Shown: positions 5,621-45,352, counted from the first letter of the stretch. The stretch is DNA of 63,216 nucleotides from an uncultured Verrucomicrobia subdivision 3 bacterium (GCA_903936645.1 CAIZWI010000306.1:1-63216), one strand, 5' to 3'. Translations and numbers: made by a program. The notes: generated by a model not told the origin, from the letters alone.

Positions 5621-6175
5621 TTATTCCCGGGTCTGCGGGGCCGGGGAAATCAGGTGCTGTTTCTCCAGCTTGCGCAGTTTGGGCGTGATCATTACCTGGC
5701 AATAGGGGGCATGGGCATTGGCCTCGTAATATTCCTGGTGGTATTCCTCCGCCGGGTAAAAGGTCGTTGCCGGGATGATCTCGGTGACGATGGGTTGGGG
5801 GAAACTGGCGGCGGCCCTGGCTTTGGATTGTTCGGCCAGTAATTGTTGCTCCGGGGTATGAACCAGAATGATGGAGCGATACTGCGTGCCGGCGTCCGCT
5901 CCCTGGCGGTTCAGGGTGGTCGGGTCATGGGCCTGCCAGAAGACTTCCAGCAATTGGGCATAGGATACTTGGGACGGATCAAAGGTCACCCGGGCGACCT
6001 CGGCGTGGCCAGTGGTGCCCGAGCAAATCTCGTGGTAAGTGGGATTTTGCGTATGCCCGGCCGTGTAACCGCTGACCACCGAGCGCACTCCGGGCAGCCG
6101 CCGAAAGACGGCCTCAATGCACCAAAAACAGCCGCCGCCAAAATCAGCGGTTTCGATGGATAGAGGAGTATTCAT
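5621..6175 (-). CDS. msrA: peptide-methionine (S)-S-oxide reductase
   Basis: 184 aa. It has the catalytic motif GGGCFWCIEAVF and typical MsrA downstream blocks (GHAEVARVTFDP, YHQEYY). Confidence 0.95.
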   Translation of the reverse strand: MNTPLSIETADFGGGCFWCIEAVFRRLPGVRSVVSGYTAGHTQNPTYHEICSGTTGHAEVARVTFDPSQVSYAQLLEVFWQAHDPTTLNRQGADAGTQYRSIILVHTPEQQLLAEQSKARAAASFPQPIVTEIIPATTFYPAEEYHQEYYEANAHAPYCQVMITPKLRKLEKQHLISPAPQTRE

Positions 6176-13505: not shown

Positions 13506-15293
13506 ATGCAAACCTTATCGCTCTTTAACGGCAAACTGCCGAAAGTTGGCATTCGTCCCACGATCGATGGCCGGCTCGGCGGCGTGCGCGAATCGCTGGA
13601 AACCCAAACCATGGATCTGGCCAAGTCGGCGGCGGCGTTCATTTCGGCGTCGTTGCGGTATCCGAACGGCCAGCCGGTGGAGTGTGTGATTGCCGACACG
13701 TGCATTGGCGGGGTGGCGGAGGCAGCGGCGTGTGCGGAGAAGTTTGCGCGCGAAGGCGTAGGGGTATCGCTGACGGTGACGCCGTGCTGGTGCTATGGGT
13801 CCGAGACCATGGATATGAATCCGGCGGTGCCGAAGGCCGTGTGGGGTTTCAACGGGACGGAACGGCCCGGGGCAGTTTACTTGGCGGCGGTTTTGGCGGG
13901 GCACACCCAGAAGGGGCTGCCGGCGTTTAGCATTTATGGGCGCGAGGTACAGGATGGGGGCGACAAGAGCATTCCGGCGGATGTGCAGGGCAAGGTGTTG
14001 CAATTTGTCCGGGCGGGTCTGGCCACGGCGCTGATGCGGGGCAAATCGTATTTGGGCATGGGCGGCGTTTCGATGGGCATTGCCGGGTCGATTGTGGACC
14101 AGCCGTTCTTTGAGGATTATCTGGGCATGCGGGTGGAAACCATTGACATGACGGAGTTTCTGCGGCGCATGGACAAGGGGATTTTCGATCCGGAGGAATA
14201 TGCCAAGGCCCTGGCCTGGGTGAAAAAGAACTGTCCCGAGGGCAAGGATTACAATTCGCCCACGACCAAACGGGCGCGGACCCAATTGGACAGCGAATGG
14301 GAAAAATCGGTGAAGATGGCGCTGATCGCCCGCGATTTGATGGTGGGCAATCCCCGGCTGGCGGAACTGGGTTTTGGCGAGGAGGCTCAAGGGCACAATG
14401 CCATTGTTTCCGGATTCCAGGGGCAGCGGCAATGGACGGATTACCAGCCCAACGGGGATTTTCTGGAAGCGATCCTCAATACCTCGTTCGACTGGAACGG
14501 CCTCCGGGCCCCGTATATCGTGGCCACGGAAAATGATTGTTTAAACGGGGCTTCGATGTTGCTGGGCTATTTGCTCACGAACACGGCGCAGATTTTTGCC
14601 GATGTGCGGACTTACTGGAGTCCCGAAGCGGTCAAGCGGGTGGCGAAGCACAAGCTGACCGGGGTGGCGGCGAATGGCCTGCTGCATTTGATCAATTCTG
14701 GTCCGGCGACCCTGGATGGCACGGGCCAGCAATCCCACAAGGGCAAACCCGTGATGAAACCCTTCTGGGAAATCAGCGAGGCGGAGGTCAAGAAATGCCT
14801 CGGGGCGACCACCTGGCATCCGTCCATCACCGAATATTTTCCGGGCGGCGGCTGGTCCACGCGGTTCCTGACCAAGGGCGGCATGCCGGTGACCATGTGC
14901 CGGCTCAATTTGGTCAAAGGCTTGGGACCGGCGCTGCAAATTGCCGAGGGCTACACGGTGGATTTGCCGGCCAAGGTGCATGATGCGCTGGATCAACGGA
15001 CCAATCCCACCTGGCCGACCACATGGTTTGCGCCCATCCTGACGGGTGCCGGGGCGTTCCGGGACGTTTACAGCGTGATGAACAACTGGGGCGCCAATCA
15101 CGGATCCATCAGCCACGGTCACATTGGGGCGGACTTGATCACCCTGGCGGCCATGCTGCGGATTCCGGTGTACATGCACAACGTGGAAGCGGAACGGGTA
15201 TTCCGGCCCAGTGCGTGGGCGGCCTTTGGCACGGCGGATTTGGAAGGGGCGGATTATCGCGCCTGTGCGAATTTTGGGCCGCTGTACGCCTGA
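13506..15293 (+). CDS. fucI: L-fucose isomerase
   Basis: 595 aa, the typical FucI length. The N-terminus [22 protein letters not shown] and conserved blocks throughout (e.g. NWGANHG) match FucI. Confidence 0.9.
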
Positions 15294-32857: not shown

Positions 32858-33505
32858 TTATTTATTGGCTGACAGCCAGGCCGTCAACAACTGAACCAAT
32901 TCGGTCTTATTCCCACATTCCTGCCGGGGCAAATGGGGCCGGCAAAAGGCAAAGCCGGGGCCGTAGGCCTGGCCATTCAAGACGCACGCATTGGTTTGGC
33001 ATTCCCGCATTTGGCGTTCGGCTTTGGCCAAGGCCTCCGCTGGAGTGCCCGCCAGTTCATATTTCCAACCAACGATTCGGCTGTGGGGGAACAGGCTCCG
33101 CATTTTCGTGATCACCTTGGTGGCGGGTTCAAGGTTGATGGTCAGCGCCCCGGAGCGACTGGCAATTTTGGGCGAGTCGCAGGCGCGACCTTGCTCATCG
33201 GTCACCTGGCGCACTTTATAATCACAAAGCGCGGCGACGTGAAAGACAGCGGCGATATCCTCAGAAGCACTGGCTTGTTCCAGCAAATGCAGCAAGTCGT
33301 CATTGGTGTCGAACCAGTGCACCCGGCATGGGGCCCCCGGTCCGGGATGGGTGGCTCCGCTGCCTTTCAGGCAAAGCACCTCAAAACCAGCGTGGGCCAG
33401 TTGATTGCTTAAAGCGACGCCCAGTTCGCCGGTGGAGAAATTGGTCAGGCGCCGCACTTGATCGATCGGTTCAAAACTGGGTCCGCAGGTGACAATGACT
33501 TTCAT
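32858..33505 (-). CDS. coaB: stand-alone phosphopantothenate--cysteine ligase-like protein (CoaB domain)
   Basis: 215 aa. MKVIVTCGPSFEPIDQVRRLTNFSTGELG is the CoaB (DFP C-terminal domain) signature. No CoaC domain is attached. Confidence 0.75.
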   Translation of the reverse strand: MKVIVTCGPSFEPIDQVRRLTNFSTGELGVALSNQLAHAGFEVLCLKGSGATHPGPGAPCRVHWFDTNDDLLHLLEQASASEDIAAVFHVAALCDYKVRQVTDEQGRACDSPKIASRSGALTINLEPATKVITKMRSLFPHSRIVGWKYELAGTPAEALAKAERQMRECQTNACVLNGQAYGPGFAFCRPHLPRQECGNKTELVQLLTAWLSANK

Positions 33506-33589: not shown

Positions 33590-34351
33590 TCATTCACCCA
33601 AAAATTTCTGCCGCGCCGCCGCGGTCAAGGCCTGCAAATCGAGGAGGGTCAGAAAATCGATGGTCTTAAACGCTTGGTCCAGCGCCGGGGGACCGCAGAT
33701 GGTCGCGCCCAGGGAGAGATAGGCCCGGAGCAGTTTGGGGATTTTAACGGGTTCGGTGGCGAGTTCGTGCAGGGGACAGGCACAGGATGGCAAAGGGTTG
33801 ACACGCCAGGGGAGGGGAGCCAGATGCTGGCGGCATAAATCGGCATAGGCGGATGCCCCCACCGCGGGAGTTTGTGAGGTGAGCGAACTGCAACCAAACA
33901 GGTAGCGGGCACCGTGCTGCCGGGCATATTCCGCAATGCCTTTCCAGAGCAGACCGAGCACCACCAGGTTGCGGTGTTGGGGATGCACACAGGCCCGGCC
34001 CAATTCGACCAATTCGGCCCGCAAGGGTTCGAACACGGCCAAGGCGAATTCTTGGGCACAGTAATAGCCCAGGTGCGCGGCGGCATTTGGCCCGGTTTGC
34101 AGGCGGTAGGTGCCCACGATGCTGGCCGAAGGCAGATGTTCAACAACCAGGTGCTGGCAAACGGCGTCAAAGGGATCTTCATCACGGCCAGTTGCGTAGG
34201 ATTGGGCCAGCCCTTCATGGAGTTCCAGATTAAAGACCTGAAACCGCAATATTTGGGCGGCCCCTATGTCCCGGGCATTTTGGGCCAGCCGGATGGCATA
34301 CAGGGCAGGGGAACTGCCCCCGGCGCGAAGCATGGCCCGATCGGTTTTCAT
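33590..34351 (-). CDS. GNAT-family N-acyltransferase (OlsB / N-acyl amino acid synthase-like, Acetyltransf_5)
   Basis: LRFQVFNLELHEGL..., GYYCAQEF and LVELGRACVHPQHRN blocks are typical of the OlsB/hemolysin-like GNAT family. The ATG at 34351 is chosen, and the track ORF extends to 34531. Confidence 0.7.
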   Translation of the reverse strand: MKTDRAMLRAGGSSPALYAIRLAQNARDIGAAQILRFQVFNLELHEGLAQSYATGRDEDPFDAVCQHLVVEHLPSASIVGTYRLQTGPNAAAHLGYYCAQEFALAVFEPLRAELVELGRACVHPQHRNLVVLGLLWKGIAEYARQHGARYLFGCSSLTSQTPAVGASAYADLCRQHLAPLPWRVNPLPSCACPLHELATEPVKIPKLLRAYLSLGATICGPPALDQAFKTIDFLTLLDLQALTAAARQKFLGE

Positions 34352-34449
34352 GATGGTCAAATTATTATCCTCGTAAGGGGATTTAGCGATGGCAAAATCA
34401 TGCTTGAGGTCAGCTTGGTGCGCCTGGCCAGGCAACTCTGGCCCCGGTA

Positions 34450-34755
34450 TCATTCTTGGTTGGAGCGAAGCTTTGCCTGGATTCGCTGGCGGGCCGCCGG
34501 AGAAAGCTGTTGCGGCACGGTTTTCACCCATTTATCCGGATGGGTCTGGGCGGTGTGGCGAATTAATCTGATTTGCTGCCCATAACGACGGCACCATTTG
34601 CAAAGGAGCACATGCAAGCGCAGCCCCAACCACCGACGGAACGGTAATTTGCGCTCAAGCGCAGCGGATTGCAAGCGGACGGCCGTTTTGCAATTCGGCG
34701 ACAAGTCGAGCAGCCCTTGCAGGAGGGTTTTGGCGATTTGCGTTAACCAATTCAT
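34450..34755 (-). CDS. zinc-binding anti-sigma factor (zf-HC2), paralogue 2
   Basis: 101 aa from the ATG at 34755. It has the ZAS motif HVLLCKWC (H-x3-C-x2-C) plus an upstream Cys (PNCK) and no TM helix. It aligns along its length with the adjacent paralogue. Confidence 0.7.
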   Translation of the reverse strand: MNWLTQIAKTLLQGLLDLSPNCKTAVRLQSAALERKLPFRRWLGLRLHVLLCKWCRRYGQQIRLIRHTAQTHPDKWVKTVPQQLSPAARQRIQAKLRSNQE

Positions 34756-34834: not shown

Positions 34835-34864
34835 GTTGGTCGGGGGAGGGAAGGAATCCTTACA
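34835..34864 (-). promoter_or_regulatory. ECF-type promoter candidate P4 (TGTAAGGA-N14-CGACCAAC)
   Basis: The minus strand reads TTGTAAGGATTCCTTCCCTCCCCCGACCAACC and starts 1 nt after the anti-sigma-1 stop codon. It has the same bipartite element and spacing as P1-P3. Confidence 0.55.
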
Positions 34865-34865
34865 A

Positions 34866-35168
34866 TTAATTACCTTTCACACGCTGCAGGTTTTGGAGGA
34901 TGCGCTTGCGGGCTTCGATGGAAAGGCGGGGGAGCGTTTTGATCTGCTCGTCGGCGTGGCTGGCGGTTTGATGGAGGAAGGTTAATTGCCGTGCATAGCG
35001 GTGGCACCAGGTGCAGATGAGAAAATGCAGGCGCATCCGCAGGCGCGTGGACCAGGGCAAAGGCTGATCCAGCGACCGGGAACTCAGGCGCGACATTTCC
35101 GCACAATTCGGTGTGTGCTGCCAAATCCACACAACGACCTTCATTTTCAATTTGGCCAACGGATTCAT
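34866..35168 (-). CDS. zinc-binding anti-sigma factor (zf-HC2), paralogue 1
   Basis: 100 aa from the ATG at 35168. It has the ZAS motif HFLICTWC plus PNCAE and no TM helix. Its start overlaps the ECF sigma stop by 4 nt (ATGA), the classic sigma/anti-sigma coupling. Confidence 0.75.
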   Translation of the reverse strand: MNPLAKLKMKVVVWIWQHTPNCAEMSRLSSRSLDQPLPWSTRLRMRLHFLICTWCHRYARQLTFLHQTASHADEQIKTLPRLSIEARKRILQNLQRVKGN

Positions 35169-35842
35169 TCGGCGACTCCCGGTTTGCCAAACCAGTTGGT
35201 TTCCAGGCAGCGACGCAGGGCCATGCGCGCCCGGTGAAGCATGACCCAAAGATTGCTTTCGGAGATGTTCAGCAACGCACAAATCTCCTGGCTTGCCACG
35301 CCGTCCACCTCGCGCAGGTTGAAAACGGCGGCCACATTTTTGGGCAGATTATCGGAGCAATCCCGGAAGGTTTGCCAAAAGAGGGCACTATCCAGACTCG
35401 CGCCGGGACTGCCCCAATCCAGCGGGCCAAGCTCGTGTATCCAACCATCCTTGAAAAGGCCGTCGGGCACAAACCGGTCTGCCTCTTCATCGGCATAGAA
35501 TTCCAGGTCGGTAAACGATGTTTCCCGGCTGGACTGGCGGTAATGGTCGTAAATCTTGTTTTTTAAAATCCCCACCAACCAGCTTTTCTCGGCCGCCCGG
35601 CCGGCAAAACTCTTGCCGCCCTTGAGCGCCGCCAGGAAGGTTTCCTGCACGGCGTCCTCCGCCCGGGCCTGGTCGCGCAGGCGCAACATGGCATATTTGA
35701 ATAGGTAATCCCCGTGCAAGTCCACCCACTGCTCCGGATCGGAGAGCTGACCGGTGGCTGGCGGAGCTTCCCCCGGGCGGGCTGCGGGCAGTTGATTGGG
35801 ACGTTCAGTCGGCACCGGGTGATTATCCCAAGCCGGCCCCAA
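35165..35842 (-). CDS. ECF (group IV) RNA polymerase sigma factor with extended region2-region4 linker
   Basis: 225 aa with a TTG start. It has region 2 (DAVQETFLAALKG, SWLVGILKNKIYDHYR) and region 4 (AVFNLREVDGVASQEICALLNISESNLWVMLHRARMALR), separated by a roughly 50-aa insert. Confidence 0.88.
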   Translation of the reverse strand: MGPAWDNHPVPTERPNQLPAARPGEAPPATGQLSDPEQWVDLHGDYLFKYAMLRLRDQARAEDAVQETFLAALKGGKSFAGRAAEKSWLVGILKNKIYDHYRQSSRETSFTDLEFYADEEADRFVPDGLFKDGWIHELGPLDWGSPGASLDSALFWQTFRDCSDNLPKNVAAVFNLREVDGVASQEICALLNISESNLWVMLHRARMALRRCLETNWFGKPGVAE

Positions 35843-35902
35843 AATGCAATTCCCGACGTGCCCCCCCCGTTTGCGCTTGGCTCAAAAGAAAGCGGGAAAG
35901 CT

Positions 35903-35932
35903 TGTAAGGATTTTATTTTATCCCCGACCCAA
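35903..35932 (+). promoter_or_regulatory. ECF-type promoter candidate P1 (TGTAAGGA-N14-CGACCCAA)
   Basis: It reads CTTGTAAGGATTTTATTTTATCCCCGACCCAAAC in the divergent region between the ECF sigma and the FMN-reductase genes, pointing rightwards. Confidence 0.5.
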
Positions 35933-35936
35933 ACTC

Positions 35937-36128
35937 ATGCAAGCAAAGCGCCAAAAGCCGTTTCGCCGGAGCGATCAGGTGGCTGATCATGCAGGTTCGG
36001 GCTGGAAAATGCCCGTGCCTCTGGGCTACTTTATGCCGCCCAGCCAGCGAATTTGCCCCTCATTTGGTAGCTTGGGCATAGTTTTTGACGGCCTGTCGGG
36101 CCGGCCATTTTTCCGCCTCACCCATTAA
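35937..36128 (+). CDS. possible leaderless small ORF (63 aa) downstream of P1
   Basis: The ATG lies 12 nt after the CGACC box, the same geometry as at P2 and P3. The sequence MQAKRQKPFRRSDQ... has no recognisable family, so coding status is uncertain. Confidence 0.25.
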   Translation: MQAKRQKPFRRSDQVADHAGSGWKMPVPLGYFMPPSQRICPSFGSLGIVFDGLSGRPFFRLTH

Positions 36129-36160
36129 CCCAGCCTAGAAAATTATTTAATATAAACATT

Positions 36161-36751
36161 ATGATTGTTATTATTAGTGGAACCAATCGGACCGGTAGCA
36201 ACACCCGCAAAGTGGCCACGCATGTGGAAAAACCTTACGCCACCCTGGGCGTGCCGGCGCAAATACTCGATCTCGCCCAGTTGCCGCCGGAAATCTATTT
36301 GCCGGCCGCCTATGATAAAACGCCGGCCTCCTTCCAGCCTTTCATCGACCTGCTTCTCTCGGCCGATGGCTTGGTGGTGGTCACGCCCGAATATAATGGG
36401 GGCATTCCCGGGGCGCTGAAGTATTTTATCGACATGTTGCCGTTTCCGGAAAGTTTTGACCAGCGGCCGGTTTGTTTTGTGGGGCTGGCGGCGGGTCTTT
36501 GGGGGGCCATGCGGCCGACGGAACAGTTACAACAGATTTTTGCCTACCGTCACGGGCTGGTTTTTCCTGAACGCGTGTTTCTGCCCGGGGTGAACAACCT
36601 GCTGGACGCCACGGGCCGTTTGCAACCGGTCATGGAACGCAATCTCCTGCAGCAGGCCACGAAGTTCGCGCGGTTTGTGGAAAAGCTCCGGGAGAAACGG
36701 TTCGACCGGGCGACCGCAGCGGCCGAAAGCCAGACTTTGCCCACGACCTGA
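36161..36751 (+). CDS. NAD(P)H-dependent FMN reductase family oxidoreductase (copy 1)
   Basis: 196 aa. MIVIISGTNRTGSNTRKV and VVVTPEYNGGIPGALKYFID are flavodoxin-like FMN_red signatures. Confidence 0.85.
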   Translation: MIVIISGTNRTGSNTRKVATHVEKPYATLGVPAQILDLAQLPPEIYLPAAYDKTPASFQPFIDLLLSADGLVVVTPEYNGGIPGALKYFIDMLPFPESFDQRPVCFVGLAAGLWGAMRPTEQLQQIFAYRHGLVFPERVFLPGVNNLLDATGRLQPVMERNLLQQATKFARFVEKLREKRFDRATAAAESQTLPTT

Positions 36752-36763
36752 AGCCTTCGCCCT

Positions 36764-37306
36764 ATGATTGCTATTATTAGCGGCACCAACCGGCCTGGCA
36801 GCAATACCCGCAAGGTGGTAACCCGGTTGGAGGCCATTTATTCCGCCCTGAGTGTGCCGGTCCAGGTGCTGGATCTGGCACACTTGCCGCCGTCGATTAT
36901 TTTGCCTTCCGTTTATGCGCACAAGCCCGCTGAATTTCAACTGTTCAGCGACACGGTGCGCGCGGCAGAGGGGGTGGTGGTGGTGACACCGGAGTACAAC
37001 GGCAGTTTTCCCGGCATTCTCAAATACTTTATTGACCTGCTGCCGTTCCCGGAAAGTTTTGAGCACCGCCCGGTGTGTCTGGTGGGGCTGGCCGCTGGCA
37101 TGTGGGGCGCCCTGCGCTCGGTGGAGCAATTACAGGCCATCTTTGGCTATCGCAATGCCCATATCTTTCCGGAGCGGGTGTTTATTCCGGGCGTTGCGAA
37201 AATGGTGGATACGGCAGGGCAATTCGCGAATACTGACATGGAACAGCGCTTGGAAAAACAGGCGGCTGGGTTTGTGGATTTTGTAAAAAGACTCAAGGCA
37301 AAATAA
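36764..37306 (+). CDS. NAD(P)H-dependent FMN reductase family oxidoreductase (copy 2, tandem paralogue)
   Basis: 180 aa. It is collinear with copy 1 (MIAIISGTNRPGSNTRKV, VVVTPEYNGSFPGILKYFID) and, by eye, more than half the positions are identical. Confidence 0.85.
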   Translation: MIAIISGTNRPGSNTRKVVTRLEAIYSALSVPVQVLDLAHLPPSIILPSVYAHKPAEFQLFSDTVRAAEGVVVVTPEYNGSFPGILKYFIDLLPFPESFEHRPVCLVGLAAGMWGALRSVEQLQAIFGYRNAHIFPERVFIPGVAKMVDTAGQFANTDMEQRLEKQAAGFVDFVKRLKAK

Positions 37307-37308
37307 AC

Positions 37309-37338
37309 TGTAAGGAACCATGCTCCAGCTCGACCAAC
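37309..37338 (+). promoter_or_regulatory. ECF-type promoter candidate P2 (TGTAAGGA-N14-CGACCAAC)
   Basis: It reads CTGTAAGGAACCATGCTCCAGCTCGACCAACGC. The CGAC box lies 15 nt before the peroxiredoxin ATG. Confidence 0.6.
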
Positions 37339-37345
37339 GCTTGAA

Positions 37346-37915
37346 ATGAAAATGAACTTAACCACCCGCTTCCGCTCCCAAGTCGCGTTATTTTTGGCGA
37401 TTGTCACCCTCAGCGTTAGTTTGCCTGCCGCCGAACCTCCAAAGGTGGGGGCCGCCCTACCGGACTTCACTCTTTACACCATGGATGCGAAGTCTGTGAC
37501 GTTGAGTGCGGAGTACGCCAAACTGCCCGTCGTATTGATCGTGTTACGCGGGTGGCCGGGGTACCAGTGTCCATTTTGCACCAGGCAAGTCCACGCGTTT
37601 GTCGAGCGGGCCAGGGATTTTGCGGGCAAAGCGCGCATTATAATGGTATATCCCGGTCCATCAGCAAATCTGCAAGCGCACGCCGGGGAATTCCTAAAGG
37701 GTAAAGGGTGGTCGGAAGATTTCACGTTCGTCACGGACCCCGATTTTACTTTCACCAAAAGCTACGGTTTGCGGTGGCAGGCACCCGGCGAGACGGCCTA
37801 TCCGTCAACGTTTGTGATTGATACCAAGGGAATCGTGCAGTTCGAAAAAATCACCAAAGGCCACGGTGGCCGCACAACCCCGGAAGAAATCCTGGCCACT
37901 CTGGCCAAGCTCTAA
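37346..37915 (+). CDS. exported peroxiredoxin/redoxin (AhpC-TSA family)
   Basis: 189 aa with a signal peptide (VALFLAIVTLSVSLPAAEP). It has a thioredoxin-fold with the CxxC-type motif GWPGYQCPFCTRQV. Confidence 0.8.
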   Translation: MKMNLTTRFRSQVALFLAIVTLSVSLPAAEPPKVGAALPDFTLYTMDAKSVTLSAEYAKLPVVLIVLRGWPGYQCPFCTRQVHAFVERARDFAGKARIIMVYPGPSANLQAHAGEFLKGKGWSEDFTFVTDPDFTFTKSYGLRWQAPGETAYPSTFVIDTKGIVQFEKITKGHGGRTTPEEILATLAKL

Positions 37916-38166
37916 TGGCCACGGCATTGCTATTGCTCGGCGGTTATGGCCTCTTGGGGCTTTTATTTGCCGTTGCCTTTGCCTTCGTGGGGGTGCAACG
38001 AATCGATCCGCACGCGGTGGGGGCTGGCTGGGGATTTCGCCTGCTCGTCCTTCCCGGCGCGGTCGCGTTTTGGCCCTGGCTGTTGTATCGCTGGCTAAAG
38101 GGGGCGCACACTCCTCCCGTTGAGCGCACGGCTCATCGTGAGGCCGCTCGGAAAGGTTTGCCATGA
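37915..38166 (+). CDS. small two-TM membrane protein, hypothetical
   Basis: 83 aa with two hydrophobic helices. The start shares 1 nt with the upstream stop (TAATG) and the end overlaps the next start (ATGA). Confidence 0.55.
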   Translation: MATALLLLGGYGLLGLLFAVAFAFVGVQRIDPHAVGAGWGFRLLVLPGAVAFWPWLLYRWLKGAHTPPVERTAHREAARKGLP

Positions 38167-38660
38167 TCCTGCCACTGCGCCAGCTCCATCGTCGCGCCAT
38201 CCTGGCCATGGGAATTTTTTTGCCGGTGGCCTTGGCCACCGGCCTCTGGTTGCGTGTGCCAGTGCCCACCATGTCCGGGTTGCCGCCGGGTCTGGGTCAG
38301 GGGCTGGCTCGGCAAGCCACCAACCAGACTGATTGGTGCTGCACGAATCTGTTTCAGAAATTTTCAATAACCGTCCGGCTGTTCCTGGAGCGGACGCCGG
38401 TTCCACGGGCGCTCCTGTCTTTTTCGGCAGACCGTGATTTTCTGCAACCCGATTTGTTGGTTTATTGGCTGCCGGGAAGCCCGGTCGTGATGGATGCATT
38501 GCCGGACAACGCGACCTTATTAGGCGAGTTTCACTCACCAACCTTGCTCCTGCCGACCGAAGCTGCCAGCCGCCCGGGGGTGTTTGTCCTGTACAGTCTG
38601 GCCGATAATAAAATAGTGGATGCCTCCCGCCCGGCCATGGTTGGGGAGCTCAACCCATGA
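38163..38660 (+). CDS. membrane-anchored hypothetical protein
   Basis: 165 aa with one N-terminal TM (AILAMGIFLPVALATGLWL) and a predicted periplasmic domain. It is translationally coupled to its neighbours. Confidence 0.5.
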   Translation: MILPLRQLHRRAILAMGIFLPVALATGLWLRVPVPTMSGLPPGLGQGLARQATNQTDWCCTNLFQKFSITVRLFLERTPVPRALLSFSADRDFLQPDLLVYWLPGSPVVMDALPDNATLLGEFHSPTLLLPTEAASRPGVFVLYSLADNKIVDASRPAMVGELNP

Positions 38661-38674
38661 TCCTTATATAATCC

Positions 38675-39712
38675 ATGTCTCTGCAATACCAGGCGGTCCA
38701 ATGGAACCGGCAAAAACGACTGTATGATGCGGTGCTGATTGGCGGGGTGGCGCTGTACCTTTTGGGCTTTGGCGTGGTGACGGAAAGCCTCTTTCCGAAT
38801 ATTACCGAGGAAATTTTGCTCATGCGGGCGTTTGGCACGGCCGCATTTATTTTGCTGCACATGATTCTGTGCATCGGTCCGCTTTGTCGCCTCAACGCGG
38901 GCTTTCTGCCCATGCTTTATAATCGCCGTCACGCCGGGGTCACGCTGTTTCTACTGGCATTGATTCATGCGGTGATGGTGGTCACCACGTACCACGCGGG
39001 CGGGGATGTGAATCCCCTCGCCAGCATCTGGGCATCCAGTCCGCTCACCCACTCCGTGGCGGGCGTGCCGTTCCAGGTATTCGGCTTTTTGGCGCTGGTG
39101 ATTTTGTTTCTGATGGCGGCGACCAGCCATGATTTTTGGCTGGCCAACTTGAGCGCGCCGGTTTGGAAAGCCCTGCACATGCTGGTGTATGCCGCCTATG
39201 CGCTGCTGGTCTTGCATGTTACCTTTGGTGTGCTGCAAGCGGAAACCAGCCTGGTTTATCCGCTGGCGCTGGCGGCTGGCCTGGTCACGGTGCTGGGGTT
39301 GCACTTTATGGCGGCGCTCAAGGAGGTGCGGGCGGACCGGAACATAAACGCCTGGGATACTGACGGTTGGGTGGAGGCCGGCGCGGTGGCGGATATTCCC
39401 GATAACCGGGCACGGATCGTGTGTGTTTCCGGCGAACGGGTGGCCATTTTTAAATACGCCGGAAAAATCTCGGCTGTCTCCAATGTGTGCCAGCACCAAA
39501 ATGGTCCGCTAGGGGAGGGTAAAATTGTGGCCGGCTGTATTACCTGTCCCTGGCATGGTTATCAGTATTTGCCAGAGACGGGGGCCTCGCCGCCGCCGTT
39601 TGTGGAGCGCGTTCCCACGTTCAATGTCCGGGTGAACAGCGGCCGGGTGTGGGTACACCCCCAACCGAACCCCGCCGGCACCCGGGCGGAACCGGCGGTG
39701 ATTGAACTATGA
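38675..39712 (+). CDS. ferric-reductase-like six-TM (di-heme b) domain fused to a C-terminal Rieske [2Fe-2S] domain
   Basis: 345 aa with six TM helices carrying conserved His (LLHMIL, LIHAVM, ALHMLVYAAYALLVLH). The C-terminal Rieske motifs are CQHQNGPL ... CPWHGYQY. A positive N-terminus and six TMs predict that the Rieske domain is cytoplasmic. Confidence 0.75.
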   Translation: MSLQYQAVQWNRQKRLYDAVLIGGVALYLLGFGVVTESLFPNITEEILLMRAFGTAAFILLHMILCIGPLCRLNAGFLPMLYNRRHAGVTLFLLALIHAVMVVTTYHAGGDVNPLASIWASSPLTHSVAGVPFQVFGFLALVILFLMAATSHDFWLANLSAPVWKALHMLVYAAYALLVLHVTFGVLQAETSLVYPLALAAGLVTVLGLHFMAALKEVRADRNINAWDTDGWVEAGAVADIPDNRARIVCVSGERVAIFKYAGKISAVSNVCQHQNGPLGEGKIVAGCITCPWHGYQYLPETGASPPPFVERVPTFNVRVNSGRVWVHPQPNPAGTRAEPAVIEL

Positions 39713-40476
39713 GTGAGGATTTTTATATTGGGTGGGAAGCCCGGGCGGGAACGGGACCGGCCCGGCGGATGCGCGGGGTGGTGGCGTTGCTGCTGCTGGC
39801 GGGGCTTGGGCTGGCAGTGGCGCTGGCGGCCCAACAACACACCATTGGGACCAGCATTTTTGAGTGGGGCACGCTGAAGCCATTTAGCGGGCGCTTGGAA
39901 CTCGAGCCTTATCCGCATCTGTTAGTGCCGCGACCGGGTGCCACGAACACCCAGCCGGGGTTTTCCACTTATTATCTCGTCGCCCCCTTCAAGCATGGTC
40001 TTGACCGGGAGAAGTTTGCCGCCTTGGCGGGGCAGATGGTGACTTTGCAAGGCACCTTGATTTATCGTGGTGAGCAAACCATGGTTGAAGCCGTGCCAGA
40101 ATCCATCCACACGGTGGTGAGTCCGGCTTCGCTGCCGACCGGCGCGGCGACGGTGAGTCTGGGCCGGCAAACCCTCGTGGGTGAGATTGTGGACAGCAAA
40201 TGTTATTTTGGGGTGATGAATCCCGGTCAACTCCTCCCGCACCGGGCGTGCGCGATCAATTGCATCAGCGGAGGCATTCCGCCTGTCTTGCTAGTGCGCC
40301 AGAAAGATGGCCCGGCCATTTATTTATTGCTGGTTTCCGCCACGGGCAAGCCCGTGAACCAGCAGGTGCTGGACTTGGTGGCGGAACCGGTGGAAATCAC
40401 CGGCGAGGTCGAATGTCAGGACGGACTGCTGATTTTGCGGGCTGATCCGCAGAGCTACCAGCGGGTGGGCCGATGA
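39709..40476 (+). CDS. membrane-anchored hypothetical protein with Cys-containing C-terminal domain
   Basis: 255 aa with one TM (VVALLLLAGLGLAVALAA). It has the Cys cluster SKCYFGVMNPGQLLPHRACAINCISGG. Its start overlaps the Rieske-fusion stop (ATGA). Confidence 0.5.
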   Translation: MSEDFYIGWEARAGTGPARRMRGVVALLLLAGLGLAVALAAQQHTIGTSIFEWGTLKPFSGRLELEPYPHLLVPRPGATNTQPGFSTYYLVAPFKHGLDREKFAALAGQMVTLQGTLIYRGEQTMVEAVPESIHTVVSPASLPTGAATVSLGRQTLVGEIVDSKCYFGVMNPGQLLPHRACAINCISGGIPPVLLVRQKDGPAIYLLLVSATGKPVNQQVLDLVAEPVEITGEVECQDGLLILRADPQSYQRVGR

Positions 40477-40500
40477 GGAAATTTTTCCGGGAGCAACACT

Positions 40501-41433
40501 TTGATTAACCAACCTTTGCACCAAAAACCGCCTGGCCGTTTGCGCCGCCTCCGGTTCCCCCCCTATGCTGGCTGGCTTGTGGGCGTGGTCCTTTTAGGTG
40601 CCCTCATCGCGCTGCCTGCGTTTGCCGGCATGTTTGCGTCATTTGACAATCCAGCCCGGCTCGGGGCCGAGATCCACGTCACCGCCACCAATGGCTTTAC
40701 CCTCCGTTGGGCAGAAAAATCCGCCGCCACGAACGGCCGGCTGAACCTGGTCTTTATCCACGGATCCCCGGGGGGTGCCGGTGCTTGGGCATCTCAATTT
40801 AAGGCCCCCTTTCCGGAGGCCAATCTCTATGCTTACGACCGCCCGGGCTTTGGCCTTTCGAAACCCGTGGGGGACCAGCCGCATTTGCAAGGGCAGGTGG
40901 ACGCTTTGATGGCACTGTTGGCCCGCGCCACCACCAACCGGGTTTTACTGGTGGGGCATAGTTATGGTTCGCCCATTGCCCTGCTGGCCGCCTTGGAGCA
41001 TCCGGACCAAATCGGCGGGGTATTGCTGATCGGGGGGGATGTGGATCCGGCGCAGGAAAAACCGTGGTTTGTTCAGTATGTTTTCGGCTGGCGCGCCACC
41101 TCCTGGCTGCTGCCACGCGCTTTGCGCCAGTGTAACCGGGAGATGCTTTCCGCGCGGGCGGACCTCCGCCAAATGCAAACGCTGTTCGTCCGGCTGGCAG
41201 TCCCGGTGGTGATGTTGCATGGTGACCGCGACCCGCTGGTGCCCGTGGAAAATGTGGCCTGGATGGAGCAACAACTCCGGGCTTTGGGCAAGGCTCATCA
41301 GTTTGCCAAAATCATTCTGCCCGGGGTGAATCATTTCATCCCCTGGGAACACCCCGACCAAGTGGAGCGGGGTATCCGCCTGCTCGTCAATATGAGCGGA
41401 CTGCCCAACCGGCCCTCCGGCACGCTTCCTTAA
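40501..41433 (+). CDS. membrane-anchored alpha/beta hydrolase
   Basis: 310 aa with a TTG start and an N-terminal TM. It has FIHGSPGG, the nucleophile elbow GHSYGS, and distal HGDRDPLVP and NHFIPWEHP. Confidence 0.8.
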   Translation: MINQPLHQKPPGRLRRLRFPPYAGWLVGVVLLGALIALPAFAGMFASFDNPARLGAEIHVTATNGFTLRWAEKSAATNGRLNLVFIHGSPGGAGAWASQFKAPFPEANLYAYDRPGFGLSKPVGDQPHLQGQVDALMALLARATTNRVLLVGHSYGSPIALLAALEHPDQIGGVLLIGGDVDPAQEKPWFVQYVFGWRATSWLLPRALRQCNREMLSARADLRQMQTLFVRLAVPVVMLHGDRDPLVPVENVAWMEQQLRALGKAHQFAKIILPGVNHFIPWEHPDQVERGIRLLVNMSGLPNRPSGTLP

Positions 41434-41459
41434 GCACGCCGAAAGAATTCTAATAAAAG

Positions 41460-41489
41460 TGTAAGGAACCGCCGCTTTCGGCGACCAAC
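41460..41489 (+). promoter_or_regulatory. ECF-type promoter candidate P3 (TGTAAGGA-N14-CGACCAAC)
   Basis: It reads GTGTAAGGAACCGCCGCTTTCGGCGACCAACCA. The CGAC box lies 14 nt before the YHS-protein ATG. Confidence 0.6.
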
Positions 41490-41495
41490 CATTGT

Positions 41496-41948
41496 ATGAA
41501 AAAACTATCATTCATTCTCCTGCTATTAGGCCTGGCACTGCCAGTTTTCGCCCAAACCAAAACCCTCCTCAATCTGGACCGTGACGGTCTGGCCATTCAA
41601 GGCTATGACCCCGTGGCGTTTTTTACGGACCAAAAGCCAGTCAAAGGCGACGCCAAGTTTGTGTTCAAGCACGACGGCGCCCTCTACTTTTTTGCGTCCA
41701 AAGAGCACCGGGACTTGTTCAAGGCGAATCCGGCCAAGTATGAACCCGTGTTTGGCGGTTATTGCGCTTATGGCGTCTCCCGCAACAAACTGGTGGAAAT
41801 TGATGTGGATGCCTTTCAAATTGTGGATGGCAAATTATTGCTGCAATACAGCAAATCCATTCGCGAGGATTTTAACAAAGATGCGAAGGCCAATCTGGCC
41901 AAAGCGGATGCCAACTGGCCGGCGCTGGTTGCCAAGAAAGGGAAATAA
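41496..41948 (+). CDS. periplasmic YHS-domain protein (YHS domain-containing (seleno)protein family, Cys form)
   Basis: 150 aa with a signal peptide. It has GYDPVAFFTDQKPVKGD, FASKEHRDLFKANPAKYEPVFGGYCAYGV and ADANWPAL. Confidence 0.8.
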   Translation: MKKLSFILLLLGLALPVFAQTKTLLNLDRDGLAIQGYDPVAFFTDQKPVKGDAKFVFKHDGALYFFASKEHRDLFKANPAKYEPVFGGYCAYGVSRNKLVEIDVDAFQIVDGKLLLQYSKSIREDFNKDAKANLAKADANWPALVAKKGK

Positions 41949-41987
41949 TCGGCGGTCAACGCAAACCTGGTCCAACCCAATTTTATT

Positions 41988-42395
41988 ATGGAACACTTCT
42001 CCAAAACCCAAACGATGGTGAGCTGGATATGCCGGCTGACGGCCGCCGTAATTTTATTGCAAACCCTGTTTTTTAAATTTACCGGGGCGCCGGAATCGGT
42101 GTACATTTTTACCAAGGTGGGCATGGAGCCTTGGGGGCGTTACGGTTCAGGGGTGGTGGAGTTGGTGGCGGCCATGCTGCTGCTCGTCCGCTGCAAAGCC
42201 TGGCTGGGGGCCTTGCTCGCGCTCGGCACGATGTGCGGCGCCATTGCATGTCACCTGACAGTTCTCGGTATTAATGTGCAGAATGATGGCGGGTTGCTGT
42301 TTGCCCTGGCTTTGGTGACTTCGGCATGCTGTGTCATCACGCTCTATCTGCATCGGCGGCAGATTCCGTACCTTTCACGTTTAATCAACTCATAA
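41988..42395 (+). CDS. DoxX-family membrane protein
   Basis: 135 aa with four TM helices. It has the typical DoxX N-terminal block (RLTAAVILLQTLFFKFTG...FTKVGMEPWGRYGSGVVELVAAMLLL). Confidence 0.75.
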   Translation: MEHFSKTQTMVSWICRLTAAVILLQTLFFKFTGAPESVYIFTKVGMEPWGRYGSGVVELVAAMLLLVRCKAWLGALLALGTMCGAIACHLTVLGINVQNDGGLLFALALVTSACCVITLYLHRRQIPYLSRLINS

Positions 42396-42399
42396 AGCA

Positions 42400-42948
42400 A
42401 TGAATCCAAACGACGCTGGCACCAACCGGGAATTAATCAATGCGGTCATGGAAACCTTGCGACAGGGCGAATGCCTGCTGGAGGCCATGGATAATGATGC
42501 TTACACCCGCAAGTTGGCCGCCGCCTTTGATGCCTCCATCGGCGGGCATGTGCGCCATTGCCTGGATCATTTTCACACGCTCCTGCAGGCGGTCCCGGCC
42601 GGGGACTTAAATTATGATTATCGCCAGCGAGGGACCGCGGTGGAAACGGATCGCCTGGCCGCGCTGAATGTGACCCGGGATTTAATGGACAGTTATGCGC
42701 AGCTCGATCCGCTGTGCGTTACCCGTTCATTGATGGTGACCTGTAAAACCAGCTATTCCGCCAATGGTTCACAAGCCTCACCCTCCACTGTGGGCCGCGA
42801 GATCATGTATGCGGTGGCCCATGCCGTTCACCATTACGCTTTGATTGGGATCATGGGGGGCATCATGGGCCTGCGCCTGCCGGCCGGATTTGGCATCGCG
42901 CCGTCGACCCTCAAGCACCAGGCCGAAGCGGCGCGAATCGCCGCCTGA
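42400..42948 (+). CDS. DinB-like (four-helix-bundle, His-triad) protein
   Basis: 182 aa. It has His-rich motifs GGHVRHCLDHFHTL and AVAHAVHHYALIG at DinB_2-like spacing. Confidence 0.55.
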   Translation: MNPNDAGTNRELINAVMETLRQGECLLEAMDNDAYTRKLAAAFDASIGGHVRHCLDHFHTLLQAVPAGDLNYDYRQRGTAVETDRLAALNVTRDLMDSYAQLDPLCVTRSLMVTCKTSYSANGSQASPSTVGREIMYAVAHAVHHYALIGIMGGIMGLRLPAGFGIAPSTLKHQAEAARIAA

Positions 42949-42953
42949 GGATC

Positions 42954-44606
42954 ATGACCGAAGCCCTGCCATTGACGACCGAAACGCTGGCCGGATGGCT
43001 GCCGTTCTGGCAGGCCGCCGGATTTTTTTGCGCGACCTTTGTCCTGGAGGATGCGGCGGCGGTGGGAGCTGGTTTGCTGCTGGCCAATGGTTCCATTACC
43101 TGGACCGCTGCTTTCACGGCGTGCTTTTTGGGCATTTGGCTGGGCGATGTCGGCCTCTACGCACTGGCGCGCTTTGCCGGGCGAACGTGGTTTGAAAAGT
43201 CGCGTTTGAAACAGCATGCCGCCAAAGTTGTCCGCAGTGAGGAATGGTTTCGGAAGCGCGGGGCCTGGATCTTAATTTTTAGCCGGGTTTTGCCCGGCGC
43301 ACGGCTGCCCACTTATCTGGCCGCAGGCTTCTTGCGCGTGCCCGCCGCCCCGTTTTTACTCATCACCGCGGCGGCTGCGCTGGTCTGGACGCTGGCCGTT
43401 TTATTTCTGACGCAGATTTTCGGCACGCGGATATTGCATGGGTTCAGCCACTACAAAACGGCCAGCTTTTGGCTGCTGGGCAGCGCGATGGGACTGCTGG
43501 TTGGTTTGCAAATACTGCGCCGGGCGCTGGCTGAATTTGACCGCCGCAAATTCAGCACGCAGGTCGCCCGCTGGACGCGCTGGGAATTTTGGCCCATGTG
43601 GTTGTTCTATCCCCCCGTGGCTTTATATTATCTCTGGCTGGCCCTCAAATATCGCGGGGCCATGCTGCCGACGGCCGCCAATCCCGGAATTTTCTCGGGC
43701 GGCATCGTGGGCGAATCCAAAATGAAGACCTTGCAGGATCTGATGCGCTCAAGCGGCGAGTTCACGGCGGAGGCCGAGTTGCTTGACGGTGATTCTCCGG
43801 AAGCCCGGCTCATTTCATTGCACGAAATTTGTGCGCGGCGAAAGATTTCCTTTCCTTTCATTTTAAAACCGGACCTGGGACAACGCGGCGCGGGGATCAA
43901 ATTAATTCGGAATGAAGCCCAGGCCGCGGCCTATTTGCAGGCAACCCAAGCGCAATTACTGGTGCAGCGGTTTGCCGCTGGTCCGCACGAAGTGGGGATT
44001 TTCTATTATCGTTTTCCCGGGGAAACCCACGGCCGTATTTTTGCCATCACGGAAAAGGTTTTTCCGGTGGTCACCGGCGATGGGAAGGCAACTTTGGCTG
44101 AACTGATCTGGCGGGATGACCGGGCCCGCTTCATGGCGGAAACCTATTTGCAACGTGCGGCTTCACGGCAATACCACGTGCTGGCGGAGGGGGAAACGCA
44201 ACCGCTCGTGCTGGCAGGCAACCACGCCCAAGGCTGTATCTTTCGTGACGGCATGAGACTGAACACACCTGCACTGGAACAGCGCATTGATGAAATCTCC
44301 CAAAAGGTGAGCGGCTTCTACATTGGTCGTTATGACATCCGGTTTGGGAGTGAAGAGGACTTGCGCACGGGCACGCATTTCCAAATTATCGAATTAAATG
44401 GTGCGGCGGCCGAAGCCACCAGCATTTACGATGCGCGCAACACGTTGTGGTCCGCGTATCGCACCTTGTTTCGGCAGTGGGAATTGGTGTTTGCCATCGG
44501 GGCGGCCAACCGGCGGCGCGGCTGTGCGCCCATGACGTTGCGGGCTGGCTGGCGTGCCTGGCGCCATTATGCCGCGCTTGCCGCCACGTATCCGACCGCC
44601 GACTAA
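42954..44606 (+). CDS. DedA/VTT-domain membrane protein fused to a C-terminal ATP-grasp ligase domain
   Basis: 550 aa. Residues 1 to about 170 are DedA/SNARE-associated (LEDAAAVGAGLL...GIWLGDVGLYALARFAG...FSRVLPGARLPTYLAAG), followed by extra TMs. The C-terminal 300 aa are ATP-grasp-like (FPFILKPDLGQRGAGIKLI, LLVQRF, IIELNGAAAE). Confidence 0.7.
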   Translation: MTEALPLTTETLAGWLPFWQAAGFFCATFVLEDAAAVGAGLLLANGSITWTAAFTACFLGIWLGDVGLYALARFAGRTWFEKSRLKQHAAKVVRSEEWFRKRGAWILIFSRVLPGARLPTYLAAGFLRVPAAPFLLITAAAALVWTLAVLFLTQIFGTRILHGFSHYKTASFWLLGSAMGLLVGLQILRRALAEFDRRKFSTQVARWTRWEFWPMWLFYPPVALYYLWLALKYRGAMLPTAANPGIFSGGIVGESKMKTLQDLMRSSGEFTAEAELLDGDSPEARLISLHEICARRKISFPFILKPDLGQRGAGIKLIRNEAQAAAYLQATQAQLLVQRFAAGPHEVGIFYYRFPGETHGRIFAITEKVFPVVTGDGKATLAELIWRDDRARFMAETYLQRAASRQYHVLAEGETQPLVLAGNHAQGCIFRDGMRLNTPALEQRIDEISQKVSGFYIGRYDIRFGSEEDLRTGTHFQIIELNGAAAEATSIYDARNTLWSAYRTLFRQWELVFAIGAANRRRGCAPMTLRAGWRAWRHYAALAATYPTAD

Positions 44607-44620
44607 CCCCCCACCACAGC

Positions 44621-45352
44621 ATGTGCACCGTTACTTTTTCCCCGCGGCGGCGTGGCTATGCACTGGCCATGAATCGTGATGAAAAGCTTTCCCGGGCAAC
44701 CGGTTTGCCACCTATTCGGCATTTAATTCAAGGGCGAAATGTTCTCGCGCCCTGCGAGCCGGGCGGCGGGACCTGGATCTCGGTTAACGACTCGGGAGCC
44801 GCCTTTGCCTTGATTAATTGGTACGCCATCGCCGCCCAGGTGGAAATTAACCCAGTCAGCCGGGGGAAGGTTGTGTTTGCGGTTAGTGCAGTGGCTACCG
44901 GCGAAGGGGCGGCCAACGTTTTGGCCCAAATGCCGCTCCGCTCGGTGAATCCTTTTCGCCTCATCGGTGCTTTTCCGGCGGCCCAGGAAATCCGGGAGTG
45001 GCGTTGGGATTTAAAAAAGTTGGTGCAGGTGGCGCATCCGTGGCGCTTGCAGCAATGGATTTCATCCGGCTTTGACGAAGCCAAGGCCCAACAAATCCGA
45101 GGCGGGTTTTTTGAATCGGCAACGGGGCAAAAAAGCGTTGGCTCACTGGCATGGCTGCGCCGCCTGCACCGTTCCCACGCGCCGGCCGCCGGCCCATTTT
45201 CGACCTGTATGCACCGGGCGGATGCCGCCACGGTAAGCTATTCCGAAGTGCGCGTAACCAGCGATGGTGCAAAGATGAATTATTTAGCCGGTGCGCCCTG
45301 TCAATGCACGAGTGGTGTGATTAACCACGGCGCGTTGATGCGGGCAAGCTGA
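44621..45352 (+). CDS. NRDE-family (TANGO2-like) protein
   Basis: 243 aa from the ATG at 44621. It has the N-terminal nucleophile context MCTVTF and the eponymous AMNRDE motif. It lies 14 nt after the ATP-grasp fusion. Confidence 0.8.
   Translation: MCTVTFSPRRRGYALAMNRDEKLSRATGLPPIRHLIQGRNVLAPCEPGGGTWISVNDSGAAFALINWYAIAAQVEINPVSRGKVVFAVSAVATGEGAANVLAQMPLRSVNPFRLIGAFPAAQEIREWRWDLKKLVQVAHPWRLQQWISSGFDEAKAQQIRGGFFESATGQKSVGSLAWLRRLHRSHAPAAGPFSTCMHRADAATVSYSEVRVTSDGAKMNYLAGAPCQCTSGVINHGALMRAS

Follow-up and report, generated by a model that had tools for sequence, protein, structure and literature searches.

Four candidate promoters of an ECF13-type sigma factor and a predicted redox-repair regulon in a Verrucomicrobia subdivision 3 genome

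Which sigma factor reads the four copies of a bipartite motif found in 63,216 nucleotides (nt) of DNA from an uncultured Verrucomicrobia subdivision 3 bacterium (GCA_903936645.1 CAIZWI010000306.1:1-63216), and to what end? The motif, TGTAAGGA-N14-CGACC, had been proposed in a sequence-only reading of this stretch, which is called the window throughout, as the promoter of an extracytoplasmic function (ECF) sigma factor. That reading had recognised a single ECF sigma gene in the window (35165-35842), and domain and homology scans find no other. From the comparisons described here, we consider it highly probable that the four copies, named P1 to P4, are promoters recognised by RNA polymerase carrying this local sigma factor (35842/35815-35165).

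An exact search for TGTAAGGA-N14-CGACC on both strands of the 63,216-base window returned four matches, and there was none in any of 100 dinucleotide-preserving shuffles (Table 1). The 8-mer itself, as TGTAAGGA or TCCTTACA, is confined to these four places, with 0.57 occurrences expected. The window contains no copy with one mismatch, and copies with two or three mismatches are at background level (11 besides the four, versus 10.4 expected). Scanning the window for spacers of 13-19 between TGTAAG and CGAC did not gain any extra site. Spacers and flanks differ completely between the four copies, the two boxes alone being kept. All four lie between genes and each is oriented toward the downstream genes. 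In these respects the earlier description stands: exactly four copies with the same 8-mer and a 14-nt spacer, a second box CGACC(A/C)A at every site, no further 8-mer elsewhere in the window, and an intergenic placement aimed at downstream genes with which the gene map agrees.

The individual placements are tight. P4 begins 2 nt past the stop codon of the first of two anti-sigma factor genes (anti-sigma 1), and its transcription start is predicted at ~34830. P1 lies in the divergent region adjoining the sigma gene, and an ATG at 35937 is found exactly 12 nt past the C of CGAC. P2 occupies a 39-nt gap between the stop of the second flavin mononucleotide (FMN) reductase gene (37306) and the ATG of a redoxin gene (37346), which is 15 nt past the C of CGAC. 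P3 is in a 62-nt gap between a hydrolase gene and a YHS-domain gene, whose ATG (41496) is 14 nt past the C of CGAC. A scan of the whole window against Rfam found no RNA family, so that the motif does not belong to any RNA element known so far.

Does the motif travel with the sigma factor? Homologues of the sigma factor are abundant, with best matches at 67-87% identity, and they come from metagenome-assembled genomes, for the most part under the labels Verrucomicrobiota, subdivision 3 or Limisphaerales. We selected related loci (numbered with L) solely for encoding such a homologue (80 loci, 1.16 Mb). TGTAAGG-N15-CGAC occurs at 184 sites in 72 of the 80 verrucomicrobial loci, and 0-2 times in shuffles. 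An iterated weight matrix, scanned over 84 related loci with shuffled sequence as control, detected 286-297 sites in 82 of the 84 loci and 2 in the shuffles. A search of related genomes, which the sequence-only reading had put forward as a check, thus finds the motif recurring with the sigma homologues. Moreover, a divergent copy adjoins the sigma gene in 48 of 79 related loci, as P1 does in the window.

The refined consensus across relatives is TGTAAGGWTT-N12-CGACnAA. Conservation extends to several positions left free in the search, namely an A at +28 (98%), an A at +27 (76%) and a purine at +34; the A situated 6 nt past the C of CGAC is conserved in 96-98% of the sites. W is found at +7, positions +8 and +9 favour T, and an A/T-rich patch extends from -8 to -4. 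Spacer and flanks carry no information content in the relatives' aligned sites. The second box had been written as CGACC; its fifth base is not conserved in relatives, and this part of the earlier definition has to be given up. In the window, P1-P4 score 25.7-32.8 bits with the matrix, and the only other hit above 12 bits is 14241-14269 (+), GGCAAGGATT-N12-CGACCAA, at 18 bits. We rejected it as a fifth promoter, as it lies inside the frame of an L-fucose isomerase (13506-15293), carries two mismatches in the -35 core and is probably due to chance. The closest relative, too, has a fucose isomerase gene not far from its sigma cluster.

The sites of the relatives behave as promoters would. With a spacer of 15 nt there are 184 sites, with 16 nt there are 14, and any other length gives 0-2. 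Exactly 12 nt past the C of CGAC, 24 sites have an ATG and 2 others a GTG; a start codon 12-17 nt past this C, almost always ATG, is found at 53 of 202 sites. The conserved genes opened in this way encode redoxin, MsrB-MsrA (methionine sulfoxide reductases), GMC oxidoreductase, FMN reductase and DoxX. An ATG at the predicted start position implies leaderless mRNAs beginning at the +34 purine, and leaderless messages seem common in the regulon across lineages. Starts at 12-17 nt were observed in L003, L004, L006, L040, L059 and others, and in the metagenome loci L095, L100, L116, L121, L139 and L197.

The motif also avoids coding sequence. When a site was scored as coding if a single conserved reading frame spanned it with 60-nt margins, 7.6% of the sites in related loci were coding, versus 35% of random positions; in these loci, a comparison of the intergenic and intragenic kind that had been proposed earlier is favourable to a promoter. 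Three loci have independent gene calls, and there the sites are all outside or at the edge of genes, with one exception that lies inside an apparently over-extended sigma start, and the called genes downstream are anti-sigma, MsrB-MsrA, YHS, redoxin or FMN-reductase genes. Other procedures were abandoned. The longest stop-to-stop open reading frame (ORF) over each site was uninformative because the motif is just before gene starts and the downstream frame is usually open through it. Scoring by any conserved BLAST segment was confounded, flagging intergenic sites (L082, L083 and P3 of the window) as coding, and calling genes by the longest ORF chose antisense ORFs over the FMN reductases.

What kind of sigma factor accompanies the motif? 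Judged by its matches, it is a member of the TIGR02943/ECF13 family, now ECF293. It contains Sigma70_r2 (amino acids 40-106) and Sigma70_r4_2 (amino acids 159-209) as its only Pfam domains, and scores 186.4 bits with TIGR02943, versus a cut-off of 162.2. We took ECF reference sequences from the supplement of Rhodius et al. 2013 (PMC3817407), whose promoter set includes no ECF13 promoter. The sigma factor is 41% identical to ECF13_1025 and 38% to ECF13_1146 over nearly the full length. An assignment to ECF18 (RpoT-like) was dropped, since the matches to the ECF18 references are weak compared with the near full-length ECF13 ones; ECF12 and ECF18 references give partial matches at 23-29% identity (23% for the ECF12 reference). 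The sigma factor falls far under the cut-offs of the SigW and SigX models. ECF13, ECF101 and ECF117 were merged as ECF293 in a 2021 reclassification (PMC7826278). Three cysteines of the 225-residue ORF, C162, C188 and C212, in or just before region 4, are invariant in 15 verrucomicrobial homologues, and equivalents are also present in the ECF13 references from Photorhabdus and Haemophilus ducreyi. The sigma factor might itself be redox-sensitive, or share a metal site with its anti-sigma factor.

A short gene for a soluble anti-sigma factor of the zinc-binding (ZAS) type lies directly downstream of the sigma gene, which is the arrangement that characterises ECF13. The start of this gene, anti-sigma 1, overlaps the sigma stop codon (ATGA), so that the two genes are presumably co-transcribed. 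A paralogue, anti-sigma 2, follows P4 and is 38% identical to anti-sigma 1. Both match the 64-66-residue anti-sigma references of ECF13 (AS13), both have the ligand spacing of ZAS proteins, which calls for H-x3-C-x2-C and a Cys/His ligand 23-26 residues ahead of it (here C22-x25-H48-x3-C52-x2-C55), and neither has a transmembrane-like segment. In 95 anti-sigma homologues, C-x25-H-x3-C-x2-C is present in 82 and a transmembrane-like segment in 0. The motif precedes an anti-sigma gene in 61 of 81 related loci, which makes this the most conserved site position. The arrangement with two anti-sigma genes, the first coupled to the sigma gene and the second behind the motif, is found in 27 related loci, and 35 related loci have the motif before an anti-sigma gene but not before the sigma gene. 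As sites before anti-sigma genes are the most frequent across loci, the most conserved output would be negative feedback.

The sigma gene is wired differently. In the window, the motif is absent upstream of the sigma gene on its own strand, even at low matrix scores, and the positive autoregulation usual for ECF sigma factors is not seen, though the family does not strictly require it, Haemophilus RpoE2 being another member that barely autoregulates; across the relatives, the motif is upstream of the homologous sigma gene in 34 of 79 loci. The circuit in the window thus appears, from the arrangement of its sites, to be one of negative feedback via anti-sigma 2 and not of classical positive autoregulation. 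A TTGCAT-N16-GATAAT block (Table 1) suggests a housekeeping-type promoter for the sigma gene. With a spacer of 16 or 17, this block is shared by the closest relatives (L001, L002 and L003) just before a GTG start, and a weaker, similar block is found upstream of the sigma gene in L004, L006 and L011. TTGCAT matches TTGACA at three of six positions, and a consensus promoter scan did not list the block. In the window, the GTG at 35815, which is probably the true sigma start, begins 6 nt past the GATAAT block, and the sigma message is possibly leaderless.

The association was also approached from the DNA side. We scanned public metagenome contigs with the pattern TGTAAGGWTT-N12-CGACNAA alone, which matched at least 120 stretches. 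Among the matches listed, an ECF13-like sigma gene is present on 37 of 120 stretches (35-82% identity to the window sigma factor, G+C 0.37-0.65), and a gene for either a sigma or a ZAS anti-sigma factor on 40 of 120. The first ORF belongs to families already seen after 64 of 115 sites among the matches listed, with these counts: anti-sigma 14, redoxin/YHS/DUF1223 11, sigma 10, MsrA/MsrB 9, an unnamed 127-residue family 7, GMC oxidoreductase 3 and MsrP 2. Other ORFs downstream of these listed sites encode DM13, DsbD-type, DoxX/DUF417 and NDH-2-like proteins. The link between motif, sigma family and redox repair therefore extends well beyond the clade of the window.

Could the four copies be something else? 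That they are a chance repeat, or what is left of some small element, mobile or repetitive, without a regulatory role, deserves next to no weight. Short repeats can arise by duplication, and nothing else speaks for this idea; no copy is expected by chance, the boxes alone are conserved and spacers and flanks differ, and the motif holds its position with respect to unrelated genes across dozens of genomes, distant lineages included. It is already refuted for practical purposes. A conserved, intergenic and bipartite motif could in principle also be the operator or activator site of a conventional transcription factor, the boxes not being -35 and -10 elements, and the starts at P1-P4 are predictions. 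The motif is asymmetric, however, and always oriented to the downstream gene, and its distance to the start codon is often fixed to the nucleotide (ATG 12 nt past the C of CGAC). P2 fills its 39-nt gap, leaving no room for a separate promoter. Moreover, the spacer rule and the box positions are of the ECF type, and the near-identical motif of Neisseria has an experimentally mapped start. We thus regard a regulator site as very unlikely.

An alternative of about the same slim probability, if marginally higher, accepts P1-P4 as ECF-type promoters and assigns them to a sigma factor other than the local one, maybe a paralogue from its group, whose gene lies beyond the 63-kb window. The local sigma gene would then be a further gene of the target region, or its product would have a different specificity. 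The characterised members of the ECF group use almost the same motif, which argues against this alternative, as do the co-occurrence of motif and sigma family (82 of 84 loci), the recovery of the family on 37 of 120 stretches among the matches listed in the blind scan, and the motif upstream of the homologous sigma gene in 34 of 79 loci. On its side are the lack of a motif upstream of the local sigma gene and the assembly MFD09286.bin.2.134, which has sigma homologues on two contigs (L030 and L060).

Recognition by the local sigma factor remains the explanation that we prefer, and several points weigh against it or against the role proposed below. As the sigma gene lacks the motif, the usual argument from autoregulation falls away. 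The window covers 63 kb of the genome, and a sigma factor of the same group may be encoded elsewhere. Recognition by the local factor is argued from association and from homology with systems studied in Proteobacteria. The CGAC of the window differs from CGTC at a strongly conserved -10 position of Neisseria. The only MsrA homologue of the window (5690-6174, -) has no motif upstream. Finally, H2O2, diamide and singlet oxygen are no inducers in Neisseria meningitidis (PMC2893595), and the signal proposed here is taken from relatives.

Table 1. Candidate promoters, genes and other features of the locus, in window coordinates
Feature	Position	Strand	Remarks
P4, candidate promoter	34836..34864	-	TGTAAGGATT-N12-CGACCAA; 32.8 bits, top matrix score of the window; exact match 34864-34838
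P1, candidate promoter	35903..35931	+	TGTAAGGATT-N12-CGACCCA; 26.9 bits; divergent from sigma gene; exact match 35903-35929
P2, candidate promoter	37309..37337	+	TGTAAGGAAC-N12-CGACCAA; 25.7 bits; exact match 37309-37335
P3, candidate promoter	41460..41488	+	TGTAAGGAAC-N12-CGACCAA; 27.1 bits; exact match 41460-41486
Candidate sigma-70-type promoter	35822..35849	-	TTGCAT (35849-35844), 16 nt, GATAAT (35827-35822); sigma/anti-sigma 1 operon
ECF sigma factor, TIGR02943/ECF13 (ECF293) type	35165..35842	-	Matches to Pfam, TIGR02943 and ECF13 references
Anti-sigma 1	34866..35168	-	100 amino acids, soluble; C22-x25-H-x3-C-x2-C; NF052368, AS13_1025 and AS13_1146 matches
Anti-sigma 2	34450..34755	-	101 amino acids, ZAS paralogue, behind P4
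GNAT N-acyltransferase (Acetyltransf_5, OlsB-like)	33590..34531	-	Pfam; P4 unit
DFP/CoaB-like protein	32858..33505	-	Pfam; last gene of P4 unit
Leader after P1	35937..36160	+	~225 nt; 63-codon ORF 35937-36128; terminator-like hairpin 36089-36103, then T run
Two NADPH-dependent FMN reductases	36161-36751, 36764-37306	+	Pfam; P1 unit
Secreted Redoxin/AhpC-TSA	37346-37915	+	First gene of P2 unit (37346..41433)
83-residue membrane protein	37915-38166	+	P2 unit
165-residue protein	38163-38660	+	P2 unit
Ferric_reduct membrane domain fused to Rieske domain (MsrQ-like)	38675-39712	+	P2 unit
255-residue protein	39709-40476	+	P2 unit
Alpha/beta hydrolase	40501-41433	+	P2 unit
YHS-domain (seleno)protein family	41496-41948	+	NF041384; P3 unit (41496..45352)
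DoxX	41988-42395	+	P3 unit
DinB-like protein	42400-42948	+	P3 unit
DedA/VTT domain fused to ATP-grasp domain	42954-44606	+	P3 unit
TANGO2/NRDE	~44621-45352	+	P3 unit

What do the four sites control? The transcription units of the sequence-only reading agree with the gene order and the downstream genes of the relatives, save for the small ORF that it had placed at the head of the P1 unit, which is not conserved. This 63-codon ORF starts exactly at the predicted P1 transcription start. We dropped it as a real leaderless protein gene, as it shows no protein-level conservation when compared with L081 and L002. The hairpin near its end and the T run that follows are conserved in both of these loci; the fold of the P1 leader is no better than that of shuffles (z = -0.32). 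The leader might act in attenuation or amount to a short RNA that depends on the sigma factor, and a σE-dependent small RNA is known in Neisseria. FMN_red genes are also found behind the motif in L004, L082 and L197.

In the P2 and P3 units, the gene order is the same in L081 and L083, and P2 families recur in 10-13 related loci. In many relatives, the gene next to the motif encodes Redoxin/AhpC-TSA and is often predicted to be leaderless. The 83-, 165- and 255-residue proteins of the P2 unit have no Pfam match, and sequence searches of the PDB with the 165- and 255-residue proteins gave no match. The motif likewise precedes the YHS gene in L083. In the P4 unit, the GNAT gene probably starts further in, at ~34351 (the GNAT protein of the closest relative has 253 amino acids), and a GNAT gene comes next after the anti-sigma gene in 26 related loci. 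A PlsC-type (OlsA-like) acyltransferase gene follows GNAT in several relatives, such as L083 (11240-12805) and L010 (~7450-8900); in the window, the DFP/CoaB-like gene occupies its place. The GNAT and PlsC-type pair of the relatives suggests a stress-induced synthesis of aminolipids.

Methionine sulfoxide reductase and DoxX, the genes that mark an ECF13 regulon, are both represented, DoxX in the P3 unit and MsrB-MsrA in relatives. In 8 related loci MsrB-MsrA immediately follows the motif; its N-terminal hydrophobic segment is signal- or anchor-like. The MsrA homologue of the window has no signal peptide, and its gene is immediately preceded by a small one with a CxxC...C...C pattern; exported Msr enzymes, and not this protein, seem to be the targets of the regulon. 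A small secreted protein with C-K-G-x-N-S-C-K-G-x-G-G-C-K repeats is encoded downstream of the motif in three loci (e.g. L031 ~2120-2380). It recalls a bufferin-type precursor, which we do not claim, as it has no Pfam match. In L082 (3242-4606), a phage-type integrase gene and a block of unrelated genes directly follow the sigma/anti-sigma pair, and the target cluster is reduced to a single FMN reductase. The cluster thus varies, and mobile DNA may disrupt it.

We hypothesize the following sequence of events. Sigma factor and anti-sigma 1 would be made together from the housekeeping-type promoter, with the sigma factor inactive at first. If MseR, HrsE and RsrA are a guide, it would be freed once the predicted zinc site (Cys-x25-His-x3-Cys-x2-Cys) is oxidised or modified. 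The -35 element TGTAAGG(W)TT would then be recognised by its region 4 and the -10 element CGACnAA, 12 nt on, by its region 2. Transcription would start ~12 nt past the C of CGAC, at ~34830 (-), 35937, 37343 and 41494 (+), making the redoxin (P2) and YHS (P3) messages essentially leaderless. The free sigma factor would turn on ~20 genes in four units, mostly for exported or membrane redox proteins, and P4, by yielding the second anti-sigma factor, would let the response shut itself off.

The redox targets in the window are the redoxin, the YHS protein, DoxX, the ferric-reductase/Rieske fusion and the FMN reductases, to which the relatives add MsrB-MsrA, MsrP-like molybdoenzymes, DUF1223, DM13 and DsbD-type proteins. 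Since most targets are exported or membrane redox proteins, the sensors are of the ZAS type and the Haemophilus data point the same way, we think that repair of oxidative envelope damage of the hypochlorite or peroxide type is the rather probable role. A response to stress from copper or other metals is a less likely alternative. The sequence-only reading had proposed ECF promoters, a local sigma factor, anti-sigma factors of the soluble ZAS type and a flavour of oxidative or thiol stress, and every comparative test supports these four elements.

More tentatively, and with odds somewhat against it, it is tempting to propose that the ECF13 circuit of subdivision 3 is a self-limiting pulse generator which, with uncharacterised effectors, constitutes a new envelope oxidative-repair system. 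In such a circuit, sigma factor and anti-sigma 1 would be constitutive, and the strongest and most conserved sigma-dependent promoter would drive an anti-sigma gene, often the second paralogue; a good number of the target messages would be leaderless. Its effectors, absent from the studied members, would include the MsrQ-like/Rieske fusion with its 83-, 165- and 255-residue partners, the YHS/DoxX/DinB-like/DedA::ATP-grasp/TANGO2 operon, and the GNAT protein together with its partner, CoaB-like or PlsC-type, a pair that could act in lipid remodelling. The regulatory family is a known one and no new kind of mechanism comes to light; its wiring and its target set are of local interest. There is hardly any experimental knowledge of gene regulation in soil and freshwater Verrucomicrobia, and the locus offers a testable regulon. 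As motif and sigma family span Neisseria, Haemophilus, Verrucomicrobia and others, the regulon of this ECF group can be predicted from metagenomes, and several protein families of unknown function are placed in a context of oxidative-stress repair.

How does this system compare with known ones? The likeness to the SigX and SigW promoters of Bacillus subtilis, put forward in the sequence-only reading, turns out to be a generic ECF resemblance; the nearest systems are σE-MseR of Neisseria and RpoE2-HrsE of Haemophilus. SigW and SigX share the general geometry, with an AAC/AAG-type -35 and a CG-containing -10 ~16 nt apart. However, they have membrane-bound anti-sigma factors, respond to envelope stress or antibiotics and are distant from the window sigma factor. 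Streptomyces coelicolor σR-RsrA has a soluble ZAS anti-sigma factor with the Cys/His spacing found in the window, is triggered by thiol oxidation and controls a thiol-redox repair regulon (PMC2893595). However, σR belongs to a different ECF group, ECF12, to whose reference the window sigma factor is 23% identical. The σR promoter is GGAAT-N18-GTT, and σR targets are mostly cytoplasmic.

Neisseria is closer. Neisseria meningitidis RpoE is an ECF293 model with a soluble anti-sigma factor (review, PMC8999054), and the σE of N. meningitidis and N. gonorrhoeae (RpoE, NMB2144; Ecf), with MseR (NMB2145), is of the same ECF13/TIGR02943 family as the window sigma factor. MseR resembles anti-sigma 1 in being short, soluble, encoded directly downstream and equipped with Cys-x25-His-x3-Cys-x2-Cys. 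The Neisseria σE promoter has a -35 box GTMAGBWTT, 12-13 nt, and a -10 box CGTCTAAH (Hopman et al., PMC2893595), and the msrAB start was mapped experimentally 6 nt past the -10 box (PMC2893595). The window promoters share the -35 box (GTAAGGWTT), the 12-nt gap and the -10 form CGnCnAA. We count them as Neisseria-type, the -35 box and gap being exact; the -10 box differs, CGACnAA having A for T at the third base and a fifth base that is not fixed. The σE regulon consists of a DoxX-containing operon and msrAB (PMC2893595), and a DoxX protein and methionine sulfoxide reductase are likewise among the targets of the window system and its relatives. In contrast to this single operon plus msrAB, the window has ~20 genes in four units, several predicted leaderless messages and a verrucomicrobial host (subdivision 3/Limisphaerales-like). 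Moreover, the sigma gene of Neisseria is part of an autoregulated six-gene operon, whereas that of the window has no motif and it is the second anti-sigma gene that has one.

In Haemophilus influenzae, RpoE2/HrsE is an ECF group 13 system that controls msrAB and MtsZ, both for periplasmic enzymes that repair oxidised methionine, and a DoxX cluster, and it is induced by HOCl, H2O2 and paraquat (PMC7907618). RpoE2 is co-transcribed with HrsE, a ZAS protein of 67 amino acids, and has very little control of its own gene, as is predicted for the sigma/anti-sigma 1 pair of the window. For Haemophilus, no second, sigma-dependent anti-sigma paralogue such as anti-sigma 2 is reported, the passages searched give no promoter consensus, and the target set is without the ferric-reductase/Rieske, YHS, DedA-ATP-grasp, TANGO2 and GNAT modules of the window. 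RpoE2/HrsE is nevertheless the best functional model for the window system.

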